Positions 4,357 to 15,266 of a stretch of DNA of 64,000 nt are shown piece after piece. The stretch is from Escherichia phage vB_EcoM_Lh1B. The stretch lies in sequence record OK428535.1; one strand, 5' to 3'. A model generated the notes under the pieces. The model saw only the letters and a list, made by a program, of their open reading frames with translations, was not told the DNA's origin and made no database searches. Both the position numbers and the translations under genes were made by a program. Position 1 is the stretch's first letter. Each line of letters opens with the position of its first letter.

Positions 4357-4758
4357 ATGACTATCAAGAAGTTCTTACAAGCAGTAGTAGTTCTGGCCGC
4401 ATGTGGTATTGCAGCAACTTATGCTTTCGATAAGCCAGACGTGACTGAATACACATCAGCTGATTCGGATTATGGCATTGCACCGAATGAAAAACCGGAA
4501 CTGATGCGTGAGGTCGAACAGTTACAAATCTACAGACTGACGGACGGTAAGAACTGCACAGGGCTGGTTATCGCTGATAAGAAATTGAAAATGTATCAGC
4601 GGTTAATCGACATATCGTGCAATCAACCAAAAGTCACCTCGGTCAGTGTATCGCCACTGGAATTACCGAATTTGGTTGCTGTGAGCTTTTATCACAACGA
4701 TGTGCTCGTCGGTCGCATCACCCTCAATCGTGGAGATATCAAAAATGAAATGCAATAA
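4357..4758 (+). CDS. putative lipoprotein (133 aa)
   Basis: N-terminus MTIKKFLQAVVVLAAC with LAAC lipobox-like signal; preceded by terminator and conserved upstream motifs. Confidence 0.6.
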   Translation: MTIKKFLQAVVVLAACGIAATYAFDKPDVTEYTSADSDYGIAPNEKPELMREVEQLQIYRLTDGKNCTGLVIADKKLKMYQRLIDISCNQPKVTSVSVSPLELPNLVAVSFYHNDVLVGRITLNRGDIKNEMQ

Positions 4759-5236
4759 CGTCAATCGCCNCTTGGCCAAAGTGGTGCTTTTTACTGTGCT
4801 GTTGATGGCAGTTGTTGTTGGGCTACGGATTTCTAAGGCACGCGCTGACGAATTCAGCGGGTTCCAGGGCAGTATTAACGGCAGCATTCCAGCATATACC
4901 CGCACCATCAATCTTAATGATAAGCCGTTCTGGTGCAATGCGCGTAAGCTGCTTAAGAAACAGTGTCGTGTAGTTGACATATCCTTCAACGGTCGTGTCG
5001 CTATCGTACACCGTCCTGGCGATAAAGATTGCCCAGGTGGTTGGTGGGGTGCAGTCGACCGTCACAATGGTGACGCGTTATGGCTTATCCCTAATCGTGA
5101 TGAACTATCAGTGGAGAAAATTTGCAGCAAAGATTTCAGGGCCGGTTTTGTACAGCGACCGGATACCAAAACTCTGGCCTCCATCGCTATGTACTACGGT
5201 ATGGAAACCATCAAAACAATCGACTATTCAGAATAA
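4745..5236 (+). CDS. small exported/membrane-anchored 4-Cys protein (paralog family member)
   Basis: Start set to ATG 4745 (GGAG upstream, 14-nt overlap with previous gene); hydrophobic N-terminus; PFWC motif and 4 Cys shared with next gene. Confidence 0.6.
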   Translation: MKCNNVNRXLAKVVLFTVLLMAVVVGLRISKARADEFSGFQGSINGSIPAYTRTINLNDKPFWCNARKLLKKQCRVVDISFNGRVAIVHRPGDKDCPGGWWGAVDRHNGDALWLIPNRDELSVEKICSKDFRAGFVQRPDTKTLASIAMYYGMETIKTIDYSE

Positions 5237-5258
5237 CTCAAAAAATTGAGGTACTATT

Positions 5259-5669
5259 ATGAAACATTTTTTATTACCAGTTTTACTTGCTACTCTGGCC
5301 ATTAGCTTCTTCGCTCGCGCTGGAAGTATCGAGTTACCAAAAGTTGTTAACGATCACGAATACGGCGGGCCGTTCTGGTGCCAGAACTCTGACGTACAAG
5401 GCGGTAGCTGTCAGATCGTTGCGATGTCCGATAACAACCGTTACCTGTTAGTGAAAACGATGGGCGGTGTCGCATGTGGCGACCCTGAATACGGGGTTAT
5501 TAACATGGCAACAGGTCAGGCCGAATCCATGAACTACAATGATAACCAAGCCTGCAGTGGTGAAGCCGTTGCTGAGTTTACTCGCGACCCAGGTGATAAT
5601 GCCCTGACGGTTATCATGTACGACCCTACGATTAAGAAAAACGTGGGCATCAATAAACTCGACTTTTAA
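5259..5669 (+). CDS. small secreted 4-Cys protein (paralog family member)
   Basis: Signal-peptide-like MKHFLLPVLLATLAISFFARAGS; PFWC motif; 4 Cys. Confidence 0.65.
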   Translation: MKHFLLPVLLATLAISFFARAGSIELPKVVNDHEYGGPFWCQNSDVQGGSCQIVAMSDNNRYLLVKTMGGVACGDPEYGVINMATGQAESMNYNDNQACSGEAVAEFTRDPGDNALTVIMYDPTIKKNVGINKLDF

Positions 5670-5682
5670 GTAAGGAAACAAC

Positions 5683-6066
5683 ATGCGTGGACTTATGGGT
5701 ATTATCGCGGCGGTGTTCTTGACCGCTTCTGCTTCAGCTACAACCAGCGTAGAAGATTTACTGCCAGGCACACCGTATCAGTACAACCCGCCTTCATTCG
5801 AAGTCTGTACTGGCGACAATGGCAGATGTGAAGAAGTCAGCCGTCACGACGAGTATATCCTGGTCCACGCAAAGGGCGAGGAAACTTGTCCGGCTGGTTA
5901 CTACTTCTTGTTGAACTCAAAGGCACAAGAGATTGTGCCGGTAGAGACAATAACGTGCGACCCGACGCTTCGCGCGTCGCTCGCTTACAATACGAAAACC
6001 AAACAACGCCTCCTGGTTATTGAACAGCAAGGGGTGGTGCGTGGTTCAGTAGCGCTCGACCAGTAA
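5683..6066 (+). CDS. small secreted 4-Cys protein (paralog family member)
   Basis: Signal-peptide-like MRGLMGIIAAVFLTASASA; C-x7-C plus two further Cys; AAGGAAA upstream. Confidence 0.65.
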   Translation: MRGLMGIIAAVFLTASASATTSVEDLLPGTPYQYNPPSFEVCTGDNGRCEEVSRHDEYILVHAKGEETCPAGYYFLLNSKAQEIVPVETITCDPTLRASLAYNTKTKQRLLVIEQQGVVRGSVALDQ

Positions 6067-7377: not shown

Positions 7378-7388
7378 CTCTCCTCTCT

Positions 7389-7420
7389 GGAACCCTTCGG
7401 GGTTCCATTTNTTCTTTTTT
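7389..7420 (+). terminator. intrinsic terminator
   Basis: GGAACCC-TTCG-GGGTTCC hairpin followed by T-rich run. Confidence 0.75.
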
Positions 7421-7473: not shown

Positions 7474-9984
7474 ATGCACAAGGTCGAACGTATCATTTTN
7501 AAAGNNTTTACCGGCATGGGGTTACATGAAANNNAAANNTTTGATTTCACCCTTAANTCAACCGTTACCANCATCCTCGGTGGCAACGGCTGCGGTAAAA
7601 CAAGCCTCCTGTCTGTTTTTCTCCCCTTAGCTCCAGCAAAATCAGAATTCCGTGAAGGTGGTTCCTACACTAACTACGCGTTAGTTGGGGACGACCGTCT
7701 TAAGTTTGAAGTCCTGCGTCGTGGCTCTTCTCTGTCTTGTAGTATTTTCAATATCACTAAAGGTGTCTCCATCGTAGACTCGGTAAACGCCAAAGTTTAC
7801 AACTCCATGGTGGAGCAATTAACCGGAATCACCAAAGAAATCAAAGAGTTAATTAATGGTGAGACCTTATTAACTGACGCCACTACCGAAGTTCGTCGTA
7901 AATGGTTTACGTTAATGTCAGAATCTGATCTGACGTACGTTGTTGGTTGCTATCGACGTTTGCGTAAACTCGCTTCCAGTTTAAGTGGGGCCATTGAGCA
8001 CACCGGCCGTAAAATCGGTGAGGCAAAAATGCGCGTGGTGGACGATGAAGAAGATCGTGCACGTTTAGAAGTTCGTTTGAAAGAACTCGATGCTGAGCTT
8101 CAGGAATTAAACCGCACAATTGAAGCGAGACCCGGTTTAGATAACGCCGTTTCGGTTGATAGTATCCGGAAACGCATTGCTTCGTTGCAACCGGCTGTAA
8201 AACTCATTATGGAACGTTATGGCGTTCTGCCTTCTGACGAACTGATTAACGAGTTTCAAAGTCGTGTGGTTGCCTGGCGTGAGCAAGCTGCCTCTGCTGA
8301 AACTGAATGCAACATGTACAATAAAGAGTTGTCACAGCTACTGGATGAGGAGTCGCGTCAAGCGTATCTGATGCGCAACCATACCGGTCTAAAACAAACA
8401 ATCGACAGCTTAAAACAGGAACTGGCAACGTTCCAACAGAACTGGATGTTCCCGGCTCTGTTTGAAGGTACCCGCATTGATGTGGATAGCATTCAGAACG
8501 CGTTAAACGATGCCTGTAACTGGAATTTACCGTTGTCCATGCATCTGGACCAGTTAAAGACAACAGATCGCCTGGGAGCGTTAGAGAAGCGTTTACAGGG
8601 TATGGATTTAACCTCTGCGGGTCTATCTGAAAAGCTGCAACGTTGTGAGAATGTGCTACACGGTTTATACCACGACCGTCAACACTTCTTAGAAACTGCA
8701 GAAGTTGATTGTCCACAGTGTAACCACCGTTTCCGTCCTGGGATTCGTAAGTCGTTACCTGAAATTGAAAAGGCCATCAACGATAATGAAGGTTGGAAGA
8801 AGCAGCTGAAAGACGAAATGGATAGTCTTTTGCGTGACCGCAAAGAGATTGAAGAGGACGTCCGTAGCTTACGTACGATTCGCGAAATCGTCATGTCGTA
8901 TTCCAACCATCCTGTTGTCGGTTTGTTTTTCCGTAAACTGCAGGAGCTGGATATCTTCACCACGGCGCGGGATCGTTACGGTGCCATTGCACGTGCCTTT
9001 ACTGAAGAGCTAGATTCGGCCATGATGTATCTGCGTCAATCGGCGAAGCTTGCAACAGCGGAACGGGAATGGCAAGAGGCTGTTGCCGCAGTAGGTAACG
9101 TTGATGGTGCGCTGAGCCAGAAAATTGAACATATCCGTTCACAACTGGACGGGGCTAACCGTCGACTGATAGAATACCGCAGACAAGCCAATGAGCTGGA
9201 ACGCGAAACCACCCAACTGCAACAAACCAAAGAAGCAATCGAACGTTTCCAAAAAGGCTACGAACATCTGGTATCGGAAATGAACATCTCCGTTAACAAC
9301 GTCGTGGTTCGTGAGTTGTTAAACCGACGCGAAGCGAAGCTCGATGCGTATACTTCAGCTCGTGAACGGTTTCGTCAAATGGAAGGGGCTATTGCACGTT
9401 TAGCGGAATTGGAAAAAGAGCAAGCTGAGTTGCTCAAAGAACACCATCNNGNCNGATTGATTATCAATGCCGTCTCACCCGAAAAAGGATTATTGCGTCG
9501 TTACTTTTATGCTGCGATTACCCGCATCATGGATTTAATGAATCGGTATATCGAAATGGTGTGGGCATATCCGATGCAGGTTATTCCATGCGATCTAACC
9601 GACGGGGATTTGGATTATACTTTCCCGGTGCGATTAAAAGACCATGAAGAACTGGTGCCGGATGTGAAGAAAGGTTCGAAGGCACAGCGTATTATCTTTA
9701 ACATGATGTTTCGTTTAACGGCGTATAAAGCGCTTGGTTTACAAAACTATCCTTTGTTNTTNGATNAANCCNCNNAAGGCATGGATGAANAACANAAAAA
9801 NCGCCTGGTCAACTTCTTTAAATCGTTGGNGTTGTTGGGGGAGTTTTCTNAANTGCTGGTCGTTTCGCATGAAGCGGAAGTTCATTCTAAACTTAACGAA
9901 GCCACCTACTGTGTCGTGGAGCCAGAAGGTGTAACGCTTCCACCGGTTTATAACGAAGGGGTAATAATCAAATATGCATCATAA
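7474..9984 (+). CDS. SbcC/Rad50-like SMC-family ATPase
   Basis: Walker A GGNGCGKTS near N-terminus; long predicted coiled-coil middle with CPQC (CxxC hook-like) near residue 410; C-terminal ...LVVSHEAEV after partly n-masked Walker B/signature region. Confidence 0.75.
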   Translation: MHKVERIIXKXFTGMGLHEXXXFDFTLXSTVTXILGGNGCGKTSLLSVFLPLAPAKSEFREGGSYTNYALVGDDRLKFEVLRRGSSLSCSIFNITKGVSIVDSVNAKVYNSMVEQLTGITKEIKELINGETLLTDATTEVRRKWFTLMSESDLTYVVGCYRRLRKLASSLSGAIEHTGRKIGEAKMRVVDDEEDRARLEVRLKELDAELQELNRTIEARPGLDNAVSVDSIRKRIASLQPAVKLIMERYGVLPSDELINEFQSRVVAWREQAASAETECNMYNKELSQLLDEESRQAYLMRNHTGLKQTIDSLKQELATFQQNWMFPALFEGTRIDVDSIQNALNDACNWNLPLSMHLDQLKTTDRLGALEKRLQGMDLTSAGLSEKLQRCENVLHGLYHDRQHFLETAEVDCPQCNHRFRPGIRKSLPEIEKAINDNEGWKKQLKDEMDSLLRDRKEIEEDVRSLRTIREIVMSYSNHPVVGLFFRKLQELDIFTTARDRYGAIARAFTEELDSAMMYLRQSAKLATAEREWQEAVAAVGNVDGALSQKIEHIRSQLDGANRRLIEYRRQANELERETTQLQQTKEAIERFQKGYEHLVSEMNISVNNVVVRELLNRREAKLDAYTSARERFRQMEGAIARLAELEKEQAELLKEHHXXXLIINAVSPEKGLLRRYFYAAITRIMDLMNRYIEMVWAYPMQVIPCDLTDGDLDYTFPVRLKDHEELVPDVKKGSKAQRIIFNMMFRLTAYKALGLQNYPLXXDXXXXGMDEXXKXRLVNFFKSLXLLGEFSXXLVVSHEAEVHSKLNEATYCVVEPEGVTLPPVYNEGVIIKYAS

Positions 9985-10165
9985 AGGTTGGCGCTTATGG
10001 GCTTGGTGGGGTTTCCAGTTCCTTCAGTTTGTTGTGATGGTACTGTACCTCTCCTTTTGTGCAACCGTAGTGGTTATCGCTGCGGTCGTTTATTTAGCTG
10101 CTGCTCTTAAAGAACGTCTGTTCGACACGCGTTGTGAGTGGCGAGATATGGGGGAACGGACATGA
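9974..10165 (+). CDS. small hydrophobic membrane peptide (63 aa)
   Basis: ORF track; W-rich then TM-like VVMVLYLSFCATVVVIAAVVYLAAAL; overlaps upstream stop. Confidence 0.4.
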   Translation: MHHKGWRLWAWWGFQFLQFVVMVLYLSFCATVVVIAAVVYLAAALKERLFDTRCEWRDMGERT

Positions 10166-10266
10166 TTGAAGGTATCGTATTAACCGGTATTGCACTGTGG
10201 TTGATTCGTGGTGCCTGGGGTTGGATTATCCGCACGAAAGGATGGGCGTTCCATGGCAACACGTAA
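10162..10266 (+). CDS. tiny membrane peptide (34 aa)
   Basis: ATGA overlap with previous stop; translates MIEGIVLTGIALWLIRGAWGWIIRTKGWAFHGNT; below ORF-track size cutoff. Confidence 0.3.
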   Translation: MIEGIVLTGIALWLIRGAWGWIIRTKGWAFHGNT

Positions 10267-10444
10267 ACCACGTCGCTTAAAATCTTGGGNGGTTGTGGTA
10301 ATGCACACTGTAGTGTTGCTGGGTNTTTTCTTGTCTCGTGCCACNCCTGCCTTTTGGGGCTTAGTTGTTTTGGTGTTCTTAGAAGGGGTTTACTTCGGTA
10401 ATCTGTGGAGCAAGCCCCCCGNGTTTAAGGGACCCGGCTTATGA
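10253..10444 (+). CDS. small membrane peptide (63 aa)
   Basis: ATG 10253 within track ORF 10208-10444; MATRKPRRLKSW then hydrophobic stretch; n-masked codons. Confidence 0.3.
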   Translation: MATRKPRRLKSWXVVVMHTVVLLGXFLSRAXPAFWGLVVLVFLEGVYFGNLWSKPPXFKGPGL

Positions 10445-10572
10445 CAGTCGTGAATAGTGTCAACGCGGCGATGATTGNAACGGGTGCGTATGACGGTGCC
10501 ACATGGACAGATGTTGGTATCACGCTTATCATTTGCGCAATCGGAGCGTTTGTAGCAACATGGTTATTTTAG
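10441..10572 (+). CDS. tiny membrane peptide (43 aa)
   Basis: ATGA overlap with previous stop; ...GITLIICAIGAFVATWLF hydrophobic C-terminus. Confidence 0.3.
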   Translation: MTVVNSVNAAMIXTGAYDGATWTDVGITLIICAIGAFVATWLF

Positions 10573-10685
10573 TGAAATGGGTTGGGTGTATCGTCTGTAG
10601 CCTGATACTAGGAGCGGGCGCATACGCCCTAGGCGCAATCCTTGCATTGACGCAAGGTTGGTTTTAACAGGAGGGTAATTACGAA

Positions 10686-10964
10686 GTGGGAGAAGTATCA
10701 TGTAACAGTGAAACAGTCTCTGATCCCGTGGTCGTGGGTTCAGGGGCGGCCGAGCCAACCCGGCGTATCGTTCTTTCGAGCGCGGGGATGGCTATAGGGT
10801 CTTCAAAGAACCTTCTAGCAGACATCGCGGAAGTCTGCGGGCCGGATGATTTTGCAGTTTCACGTACAGTCGGGGAAGACTGGCGTGGTAATCAGAAGCG
10901 CCATGAGCGAATGTGGCGACGGAAGGTTACCTCAGCATCGCGACGTTTTCAACGTCGTTGCTGA
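10686..10964 (+). CDS. hypothetical protein (92 aa)
   Basis: ORF track; AGGAGG upstream; overlaps alternative ORF 10846-11166 so uncertain. Confidence 0.3.
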   Translation: MGEVSCNSETVSDPVVVGSGAAEPTRRIVLSSAGMAIGSSKNLLADIAEVCGPDDFAVSRTVGEDWRGNQKRHERMWRRKVTSASRRFQRRC

Positions 10965-11110
10965 TTATAGACACGGTTCCGATAGAGAACTGGTCTTCAC
11001 CTCTGGCGGTATACACCGCTTAAGTTTACCGGTAAACTTAAGAAAACACAAACCCAATTCTTCGTTACTCNCTTTCATCGCAGGTGAAAGCTCACTTAGG
11101 AATTCAGCTC

Positions 11111-11599
11111 ATGGCCGAAATTGTCATTCTTTCCTCATCCTCAGATTTAACGGAAGCACAAAATAAACAGCTGTTGGGGCTGCATTATAAATTTCTGAAC
11201 CACCAACGTACCATACTCCATATCGAAAAAGGTGAGATTCCGAACCTCACTCTGGAGAAACTGTTGGCGGGGAACCGTGCTTGTGTTGCTCTGGAAGGGG
11301 GTACCCCTGTTGGTTACTGTTTGTATCGCGTAATCGCTGGGGTTCTGAAGATTCGTACGATGTTCGTGTCTGAAATGGCACGCCGTCGTAAAACGATGAC
11401 GCAGATTTTTGATGCGCTTGATGTGAATGNGCAGTTCACCAGTGCGCATGGGGGAATATACGCTTGCCAGGAAGCTGGTATTGCGTTCTTTACCNCTCGC
11501 GGTTTTGACAAGACCGTCTCTACAGACGGACAATGGCTTGAATTTAAGAAGCAGGTTCTTGCGGAAGCAGATGAACCTTTAAGGACTGCGGTAGCATAG
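11111..11599 (+). CDS. possible GNAT-family acetyltransferase (weak)
   Basis: Start set to ATG 11111 (AGGAA upstream); ...GTPVGYCLYRV...MFVSEMARRRKTMTQIFDAL...ACQEAGIAFFT.RGF resembles GNAT core and C-terminal motif only loosely. Confidence 0.4.
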   Translation: MAEIVILSSSSDLTEAQNKQLLGLHYKFLNHQRTILHIEKGEIPNLTLEKLLAGNRACVALEGGTPVGYCLYRVIAGVLKIRTMFVSEMARRRKTMTQIFDALDVNXQFTSAHGGIYACQEAGIAFFTXRGFDKTVSTDGQWLEFKKQVLAEADEPLRTAVA

Positions 11600-11670
11600 T
11601 CCTGTTTTAGCACTCCTTACGATTATGCCTCACTATGAGTGGGGTATTTTTTACGCGAGGAGTGCTATTT

Positions 11671-11880
11671 ATGTTTCACCGTCCCGGGTTTTCAGCTTTA
11701 AACACCGATGTCTGTTGGGCTGAGTACGAGCGGGTGAAGGAGTTCTTACCCGTAAATCCTAAACACATCAACGTGGGTACTATCGGGCGTGTTGCGTTCG
11801 ATGACACTCCGCTGAGTACGTGTATTAAAGCTGCGCTTGGTACGCTGCCGGCGTCTATAGTGTTTGAGGAATTAAAATGA
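11671..11880 (+). CDS. hypothetical protein (69 aa)
   Basis: ATG 11671 with GCGAGGAG upstream within track ORF 11635-11880. Confidence 0.4.
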   Translation: MFHRPGFSALNTDVCWAEYERVKEFLPVNPKHINVGTIGRVAFDDTPLSTCIKAALGTLPASIVFEELK

Positions 11881-13635: not shown

Positions 13636-14358
13636 ATGTTTCNCACCATTTTATTTCTTCTGGTAGCAGTGACCACATTCAACAGCAACGCTTCTTACCA
13701 GACCACCAGTAACAAACACCAAAAAGAATTCGTCCTTATCCAGGACCAGTTCAATGAGATTAAACCTCTCATCGTCACCGCATCTCGAAAACAAGGCGTA
13801 CATGCCGGGATGCTCGCGACCACCATTTATCGTGAATCCCGTTTTAATAAAAACGTGGGTAAGAATAAATCGAGCAGTGCTAGTAGTGTTGTCCAAATGA
13901 CGACAGGCACTAAACGCTCCATGATACGTCTGTATGGGAAACAACTTAACATCCCAAAGAATGCGGACCTTAATAAACCGAAGTATGCTGTACAGCTTGC
14001 TGCCGTTTACATGAAACACATCGAGGATCATCTGACAAAACAACTCAAACGCAAGCCGAGCACAGCCGAAATCGCTTTAGGCTATCGCTTCGGTGAGGGT
14101 GCCGCTGTTGCGATGATTAAAAAGAAATCACCGGTCGGGAAACGCTGGATGGCNNGCNACNGAAAAGACGCAGCATTCTACGGTGCGAAAATGACACCAC
14201 CGAAAGNTGAAANACNNCNGNTTNNNTTTGNGNAGGNAGNCCANGNCCAACGNGTCGCCGAACTTCAGAAAATCTGGGATACGCTGTACACCAAAATATC
14301 ACCTGCGGCCGGTACATTACTGGCAAATAACACTATCATGAAAGGAGCATTGCTATGA
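13636..14358 (+). CDS. lytic transglycosylase-like protein with N-terminal hydrophobic signal/anchor
   Basis: Hydrophobic N-terminus MF.TILFLLVAVTTF; YRESRFN...SSASSVVQMT...AAVYM resembles the SLT E-S motif block; GGAGA upstream; C-terminal third n-masked. Confidence 0.55.
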   Translation: MFXTILFLLVAVTTFNSNASYQTTSNKHQKEFVLIQDQFNEIKPLIVTASRKQGVHAGMLATTIYRESRFNKNVGKNKSSSASSVVQMTTGTKRSMIRLYGKQLNIPKNADLNKPKYAVQLAAVYMKHIEDHLTKQLKRKPSTAEIALGYRFGEGAAVAMIKKKSPVGKRWMXXXXKDAAFYGAKMTPPKXEXXXXXFXXXXXXQXVAELQKIWDTLYTKISPAAGTLLANNTIMKGALL

Positions 14359-14999: not shown

Positions 15000-15266
15000 G
15001 TGTTCGTGAAACGTTTAATAAATATTCTCTACTGGATGGAGAAACGCTATAGCCACAACATTCCGATGATGTATAGTTTGTTATTCTCTACGGTAATGTT
15101 GGTGATCGGTGCGATTGTCGCGCATCTGATGGAACTCACGTCTCCATGGGCGCAACTCTTTCTTACCATCTGGATGTTGTTCTCAGGCTACCACATACGT
15201 GGTTTCATAACCCGATTCTTTCGCTGGCGTAGTACCTGGCACGTCTTTAATTCCGACCGTAACTAG
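15000..15266 (+). CDS. small membrane protein (start uncertain)
   Basis: Two hydrophobic helices (LLFSTVMLVIGAIVAHL; LFLTIWMLFSGY); GTG start in track, alternative internal ATG. Confidence 0.4.
   Translation: MFVKRLINILYWMEKRYSHNIPMMYSLLFSTVMLVIGAIVAHLMELTSPWAQLFLTIWMLFSGYHIRGFITRFFRWRSTWHVFNSDRN

Follow-up and report, generated by a model that had tools for sequence, protein, structure and literature searches.

What do five tiny, overlapping genes for hydrophobic proteins do directly downstream of a recombination gene in an SPN3US-like jumbo phage? The question is raised by positions 9974-10667 of the window, by which we mean the whole stretch of 64,000 nucleotides (nt) of Escherichia phage vB_EcoM_Lh1B that was analysed (record OK428535.1). 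A preliminary description of this DNA had placed here a chain of open reading frames (ORFs) of 63, 34, 63, 43 and about 31 codons behind a Rad50-like gene. All five were present at these positions on the plus strand and in these sizes, and the upstream gene does encode an SbcC/Rad50-like ATPase. With a probability of roughly 0.5, we read the five genes as a clade-specific accessory cassette of co-translated inner-membrane micro-proteins that acts on the host envelope. The features of the cluster, with protein lengths in amino acids (aa), are the following.

7474..9984, plus strand: gene of the SbcC/Rad50-like ATPase (SPN3US gp186), which opens the proposed transcription unit; stop codon at 9982-9984
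9974..10165, plus strand: ORF1 (SPN3US gp187, phrog_16515), 63 aa
10162..10266, plus strand: ORF2 (phrog_13448; without annotation in the SPN3US RefSeq record), 34 aa
10253..10444, plus strand: ORF3 (SPN3US gp188, phrog_18173), 63 aa here
10441..10572, plus strand: ORF4 (SPN3US gp189, phrog_29196), 43 aa
10560/10572..10667, plus strand: ORF5 (no PHROG family), 35 aa from the ATG at 10560 or 31 aa from the GTG at 10572
10415..10420, plus strand: homopolymer run of six C (C6), which shifts the frame of the last ORF3 codons; five C (C5) in most relatives

Five overlapping genes under purifying selection

Each gene of the cluster overlaps the next. The ATG of ORF1 lies 11 nt ahead of the SbcC stop, ORF1 and ORF2 share 4 nt in an ATGA stop-start overlap (10162-10165), and ORF2 and ORF3 overlap by 14 nt. 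ORF3 and ORF4 share another 4-nt ATGA in the window (10441-10444), and ORF4 and ORF5 overlap by 13 nt, with a TAGTG at 10570-10574 that joins the ORF4 stop to the GTG at 10572. The starts of ORF1-4 are preceded, 4-11 nt upstream and inside the preceding ORF, by purine-rich tracts resembling Shine-Dalgarno (SD) sequences (-5 to -8 kcal/mol), and such a tract is kept at each of these sites in all six genomes scored. Conserved gene order, SD-like tracts and overlapping junctions suggest that the tightly packed ORF1-5 are probably translationally coupled, as the preliminary description had proposed. The three stop-start junctions that it listed (the two ATGA and the TAGTG) are all present, but the ATGA at 10441 proved specific to an allele with a 1-nt indel, described below.

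The five ORFs are genuine protein-coding genes under purifying selection. Only five N bases fall within 9974-10667, and all frames are unbroken. ORFs that each contain a hydrophobic 17-mer of transmembrane grade tile 94% of the 694 nt, a value matched by none of 1000 dinucleotide-preserving shuffles (shuffle mean 22%). Selection was measured between SPN3US and two relatives of about 70% DNA identity, Salmonella phage SPAsTU and Erwinia phage pEa_SNUABM_29. Third-position changes were in excess for every ORF. With synonymous sites near saturation, the ratio of nonsynonymous to synonymous substitution rates (dN/dS) was 0.23-0.30 for ORF1, 0.07-0.12 for ORF2, 0.17 for ORF3, 0.08-0.16 for ORF4 and 0.18-0.41 for ORF5, compared to 0.07 for SbcC. 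It is therefore exceedingly improbable that the ORFs are spurious products of a T/G-rich composition, or that their conservation is due to an RNA or antisense feature: they are very short and some are skipped by several automated annotations, but the comparative data effectively refute this reading through purifying selection in the plus-strand frames and because start codons, C-terminal motifs and SD-like tracts are retained between genomes of about 70% DNA identity. The region also matches no Rfam family, and the shuffles do not reproduce the tiling.

Two of the gene boundaries differ from those first described. Among the sequences fetched, C6 at 10415-10420 is common only to the window and phage EC001, whereas SPN3US, SPFM13, SEGD1 and three metagenomic SPN3US-like contigs carry C5. 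The divergent SPAsTU and the metagenomic contig L016 lack such a C-run, yet the long ORF3 tail is present in both. With C5, ORF3 encodes 67-68 aa, ends in the tail PP(R/L)LRDPAYD(S/N)RE, which is conserved out to Erwinia phage Stratton, and overlaps ORF4 by 17 nt. The ATGA at 10441 exists because of the extra C. Since C6 is limited to the window and EC001, this junction and the 63-codon ORF3 are features of a minority allele or of a homopolymer error.

For ORF5, all Seoulvirus relatives keep an ATG that falls in the final 13-17 nt of ORF4. The alternative start, at the ORF4 stop, is GTG in the window and ATG in SPAsTU and L016; pEa_SNUABM_29 lacks it, and no SD-like tract precedes it. On these grounds, ORF5 more likely starts at the ATG at 10560 (35 aa) than at the GTG at 10572. 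The gene coordinates of EC001 (MN445185.1) equal those of the window plus exactly 160,000; over 9900-10750 the two sequences have 38 non-N differences, and the window is closer to the SPFM phages.

Predicted membrane proteins and their relatives

Judged by their sequences, ORF1-5 encode very small, extremely hydrophobic, Trp-rich integral membrane proteins (16 Trp among 242 residues). We identified membrane segments by Kyte-Doolittle hydropathy and the helices of ORF1 and ORF3 with AlphaFold2 (AF2), and derived topology from hydrophobicity and the positive-inside rule. The preliminary description had assigned one transmembrane helix to each peptide and had named topology prediction as a check. 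All five are indeed hydrophobic with predicted membrane helices, but both methods gave ORF3 two of them.

In ORF1, the basic N-terminus HKGWR leads into a hydrophobic helix of about 36 aa, behind which lies the conserved tail RLFDxRCEWR; the protein is predicted to be a long single-span helix with a charged tail. Its AF2 model is one continuous long helix with a predicted local distance difference test (pLDDT) score of 87, which is weak evidence because the model was built from a single sequence. ORF2 has one transmembrane domain (TMD) followed by a basic, Trp-rich tail, WxWII(R/K)xKGWAF, and would insert N-out/C-in. In ORF3, a basic N-terminus (MARRKPGRLK) is followed by two hydropathy segments (9-29 and 29-51). 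Its AF2 model is a hairpin of helices 6-29 and 32-53 (mean pLDDT 76), and the protein probably forms an N-in/C-in helical hairpin with a conserved cytoplasmic tail. ORF4 contains no basic residue, its C-terminal TMD ends in WLF, and it may be a tail-anchored peptide. ORF5 has a single Gly/Ala-rich TMD and the C-terminus ALTQGWF. It is predicted to insert N-in/C-out, with the TQGWF end at the periplasmic interface.

We rejected an origin of the cluster by tandem duplication, as pairwise similarity among the five ORFs was not significant. A score of z = 5 between ORF5 and phiKZ gp166.1 was judged compositional because shuffling disperses the hydrophobic block of gp166.1.

The region matches the SPN3US-like jumbo phages (Seoulvirus; nucleus-forming and phiKZ-related), with 93-97% identity to about 33 records and about 69-72% identity to SPAsTU and pEa_SNUABM_29. 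ORF1, ORF3 and ORF4 are 93-100% identical to SPN3US proteins. Full-length PHROG profiles matched ORF1 (3e-30), ORF2 (6e-9), ORF3 (4e-40) and ORF4 (8e-33), all four labelled only as hypothetical protein or unknown function; none matched ORF5. The preliminary description had likened the cluster to unannotated micro-proteins, but the genes do not generally lack annotation: SPAsTU annotates all five genes, SEGD1 and EC001 four, and SPN3US and SPFM13 three. The presence of a TMD protein, gp187 (ORF1), beside SbcC had already been noted by Thomas et al. (2016). The genes are thus catalogued as hypothetical proteins and are of a familiar kind, small phage membrane proteins.

Wider searches remained within this group of phages. 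No family in Pfam, NCBIfam or PADLOC matched any of the five ORFs. ORF1 and ORF3 matched only SPN3US-like proteins among 5.8 billion clustered proteins, and an exhaustive phmmer search with ORF1 of 1.84 billion representatives gave three matches, all inside the clade. Scans of IMG/VR and metagenome contigs for the ALTQGWF motif returned only SPN3US-like or Wellington-like genomes. Together, these searches suggest that the families are confined to SPN3US-like phages.

SPN3US, SPAsTU and L016 share all five ORFs and their order, whereas pEa_SNUABM_29 shows a clean loss of ORF3 only and keeps ORF1, 2, 4 and 5. Among the genomes examined, ORF4 is confined to Seoulvirus. A related block follows SbcC in Erskinevirus (Stratton), Machinavirus (pEa_SNUABM_43) and Wellingtonvirus (Kwan), in the order position-1 TMD protein, ORF2-like protein, 2-TMD protein, 35-aa ORF5-like peptide, a protein with an EDWRG motif and a GNAT acetyltransferase. 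The ORF5-like gene is present but unannotated in pEa_SNUABM_43, and the ALTQGWF C-terminus is invariant in the Seoulvirus, Erskinevirus and Wellingtonvirus relatives. The Kwan block carries two insertions: a 128-aa HExxH protein (HEAVH, phrog_1365) between the position-1 and ORF2-like genes (5179-5565 of its contig, L011), and an extra 46-aa TMD peptide further along the cluster.

Beyond these genera the arrangement varies. CR5 has one 113-aa, 2-TMD protein after SbcC, 201phi2-1 has the TMD proteins gp252-254, and phiKZ has gp166.1 and gp167. Such TMD proteins are missing after SbcC in Goslar, Ea35-70 and RSL2. In Aeromonas phage PS1, the gene directly behind SbcC encodes a signal-peptide SLT transglycosylase.

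One group of database records needs care in such comparisons. The GenBank record of SPFM5 (LR535903.1) was deposited with its 60-base lines in reversed order, so that BLAST returns collinear 60-nt blocks running backwards. The same reversal probably affects SPFM1, 6-10, 12, 14, 15 and 20. It explains the matches in "14-15 pieces" and the fragmented gene calls in records of this type.

Possible functions of the cassette

If ORF1-5 form an accessory envelope cassette, translational coupling would set fixed ratios of the five micro-proteins, which would act at the host cytoplasmic membrane. Trp-rich interfacial motifs and small-xxx-small helix motifs would probably mediate their binding to one another or to a membrane protein of the host. 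The outcome would be a change in envelope behaviour during infection, for example in membrane integrity, lysis timing or superinfection exclusion. In our opinion, the five take no part in DNA repair. The deletion of ORF3 in pEa_SNUABM_29, the absence of ORF4 outside Seoulvirus and the lack of relatives outside SPN3US-like phages all argue for an accessory status. An envelope role is suggested by the neighbours: upstream of the SbcC unit are four genes for signal-peptide proteins or lipoproteins, and a signal-peptide SLT endolysin and a 2-TMD protein are encoded 3 kb downstream.

Several points weigh against this reading. The topologies of all five proteins are predictions, and the homology searches found no relative of known function. 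Compact phage genomes often have overlapping starts, which are no proof of a complex. At positions 1 and 3, the proteins of Kwan and pEa_SNUABM_43 fall into different PHROGs, so conservation across genera is there positional and not demonstrably homologous. Nor is the time of expression fixed by the promoter region. A footprint upstream of SbcC and behind the terminator-like hairpin at 7388-7407, TTTTTTAC-N17-GATATG, is invariant or nearly so in seven of the eight genomes aligned, from five genera, and the eighth, CR5, keeps TTTTTTAC but has TATA in place of TATG. In phiKZ, promoters of the non-virion RNA polymerase are reported to have TATG as their start-site motif. However, neither TTTTTTAC alone nor the composite motif was significantly enriched in the window, and no extended promoter consensus emerged. 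Since the TATG motif is too short and its recurrence not significant, we dropped the assignment of a promoter class. The footprint is suggestive only.

An essential role in early phage infection (EPI) vesicles was judged unlikely. The paper on these vesicles reports them for Goslar and phiKZ, without naming phage membrane proteins. Both phages show vesicles yet lack the cluster.

A more specific proposal, which we consider unlikely, is that the cluster is a lysis-timing set. ORF3 would be a class II holin or pinholin and the other peptides antiholin or regulator subunits, and the set would control the depolarisation that activates or releases the Sec-exported endolysin. In its 67-aa form, ORF3 resembles class II holins and pinholins such as phage 21 S21 in size, in its two TMDs, in its predicted N-in/C-in topology and in its charged C-terminal tail. 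The putative endolysin (SLT domain, SPN3US gp198; 13636-14358, plus strand) has an N-terminal signal-peptide or signal-arrest-release (SAR)-like hydrophobic segment, and no holin or spanin is annotated in these genomes. The equivalent transglycosylase gene in PS1 directly follows SbcC, showing that lysis genes do occur in this block in other members of the family.

However, ORF3 matches no holin family in Pfam, PHROGs or NCBIfam, and the holin/antiholin or exclusion type suggested by the preliminary description likewise found no family placement in these databases or in PADLOC. ORF3 lies outside a lysis cassette, since the endolysin is 3.2 kb downstream with six unrelated genes and a terminator in between, while the cluster itself appears to be co-transcribed with a recombination gene. 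Its loss from one close relative shows that it is dispensable there, unlike the essential function expected of a lysis gene. A nearer candidate is gp200 (15000-15266, plus strand), two genes after the endolysin, which encodes 86-88 aa with two TMDs, a basic tail and a weak match to DUF4231 below the cut-off. Of the genes considered, gp200 is the most obvious candidate for a holin.

The only characterised chimallivirus lysis cassette, phiKZ gp141-144, also differs. It comprises an i-spanin, an o-spanin, a class III holin with a single TMD and a large cytoplasmic domain, and a soluble regulator (Manohar et al. 2026), and it is contiguous with the endolysin. The phiKZ cassette and ORF1-5 are alike in virus family and in containing small membrane proteins, which in phiKZ control envelope disruption. 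Endolysin contiguity, spanins, a class III holin and a soluble regulator were all unseen in the ORF1-5 cluster. With respect to spanins, the five ORFs have no conserved lipobox, the Cys of ORF5 is not conserved in relatives, and all five proteins are too short for a periplasmic domain.

Equally improbable in our judgement is superinfection exclusion or anti-defence at the membrane, similar to T4 Imm/Sp or Sie, by which the proteins would block DNA entry by a second phage or neutralise a membrane-bound host defence effector. Exclusion is usually brought about by small inner-membrane proteins. ORF1-5 share with T4 Imm/Sp and similar systems that they are small, accessory phage inner-membrane proteins encoded outside the late clusters, and their operon partner is a recombination gene rather than late structural genes. 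They are also clade-restricted and fast-evolving, with gains and losses between genera. The known systems, in contrast, are single proteins, whereas five coupled genes exceed what these would need. ORF1-5 have no sequence relation to them and match no Sie/Imm or defence family in Pfam, NCBIfam or PADLOC.

Two bolder versions of an envelope function are more doubtful still. The cassette could be the missing membrane-permeabilising part of lysis, or a new five-subunit complex that couples SbcCD or early infection events to the inner membrane of the host. In the lysis version, the SPN3US-like nucleus-forming phages would assemble the ORF3 hairpin with the single-span ORF1, ORF2 and ORF5, and sometimes ORF4. 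This assembly would be encoded apart from the Sec-exported endolysin, its ratios fixed by translational coupling to SbcC.

It is very unlikely that ORF1, possibly with the others, anchors or regulates SbcC, as has been proposed for T4 gp47.1 with gp46/47. The idea of such a tether was raised by Thomas et al. (2016). In Seoulvirus, Erskinevirus, Machinavirus, Wellingtonvirus and CR5, the gene right behind SbcC encodes a small TMD protein. In the first three, this gene overlaps the SbcC stop; it begins 4 nt beyond the stop in Kwan and 10 nt beyond it in CR5. In 201phi2-1, a 41-aa ORF without a clear TMD lies over the SbcC stop and is followed by the 2-TMD gp252. T4 gp47.1, a 46-aa predicted membrane protein of the gene 46/47 operon whose gene overlaps gene 47 by 4 nt, is like ORF1 a tiny, coupled TMD protein in an SbcC/SbcD operon.

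Several points speak against a tether. Similarity to gp47.1 is nil for all five ORFs (Smith-Waterman z of -0.9 to 1.2, 500 shuffles), and T4 has a single such gene, upstream of its SbcD-type gene, whereas here there are five, downstream of SbcC. The function of gp47.1 is itself unproven. Co-occurrence is also not family-wide. No TMD gene stands directly behind SbcC in phiKZ, Goslar, Ea35-70 and RSL2; phiKZ has only gp166.1/167, about 850 nt beyond it, and the family of the position-1 protein differs between genera. Finally, chimallivirus DNA metabolism takes place inside a proteinaceous, membrane-free nucleus, which offers a membrane tether no obvious place.

Whichever function applies, annotation is systematically incomplete for small membrane proteins, and hardly any of those in jumbo phages has an assigned function. 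Comparative support here covers ORF2 and ORF5, both omitted by the SPN3US reference genome, and the block of small TMD proteins, EDWRG protein and GNAT follows SbcC in four genera. The cluster offers a defined 700-bp target in a genetically tractable model jumbo phage. Control of lysis or exclusion by the cassette would close a gap in what is known of chimalliviruses, whereas a cassette without a phenotype would be one more entry among the many accessory micro-proteins of phages. In practical terms, the gain lies in corrected gene models for the ORF5 start, the ORF3 frameshift allele, ORF6 (below) and spurious overlapping calls.

The SbcC unit and neighbouring genes

The remaining features of the SbcC unit are the following.

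7388..7407, plus strand: intrinsic-terminator-like hairpin and T-tract, closing the upstream unit
10686..10964, plus strand: ORF6 (phrog_15402), 92 aa, GTG start with a strong SD sequence, GGAGGG, at 10670-10675
11111..11599, plus strand: GNAT acetyltransferase (SPN3US gp191), last gene of the unit
11625..11647, plus strand: intrinsic-terminator-like hairpin and T-tract, closing the SbcC-to-GNAT unit

Between the two terminators the gene order is SbcC, ORF1-5, ORF6 and GNAT, with gaps of at most 146 nt and no convincing terminator. This suggests that the genes are co-transcribed as one terminator-bracketed unit. Amber mutants show that its first gene, SbcC (SPN3US gp186), is essential. ORF6 encodes the non-membrane EDWRG protein, in which this motif is conserved and the tail is very basic, and in every related genus examined it comes after the cluster. 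ORF6 is missing from the SPN3US RefSeq record, which instead annotates a 40-aa ORF in a different frame (gp190), while EC001 annotates 10846-11166, in yet another frame over the ORF6 region. Both are probably mis-annotations.

The genes upstream of the SbcC unit include four consecutive small proteins, SPN3US gp180-183 (4357-6066, plus strand), all of which have signal-peptide-like starts. The first of these, gp180, has a lipobox-like LAAC.

The heptamer TTTTTAC occurs right after a gene end or terminator hairpin at positions 253, 728, 3626, 7416, 11648, 15268 and 62143 (plus strand). Seven of the nine plus-strand sites are at intergenic starts, and the one upstream of SbcC is invariant across five genera. 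Its overall enrichment was not significant in shuffles. TTTTTAC may represent a phage-specific transcription punctuation.

The gene after GNAT, SPN3US gp192 (11671-11880, plus strand), contains a stretch that matches the N-terminus of EF-Tu. In the corresponding Stratton protein, gp214 (6648-6977 of contig L009), HVNVGTIGHVDH is identical at 12 of 12 positions to residues 12-23 of E. coli EF-Tu, with SRS in place of the P-loop GKT, and its top PDB matches are all EF-Tu (E about 1e-4). The version in SPN3US and the window is more degenerate (HINVGTIGRVAFDD), and the PHROGs concerned have no assigned function. Proteins of the gp192 type may be mimics or decoys of an EF-Tu fragment.

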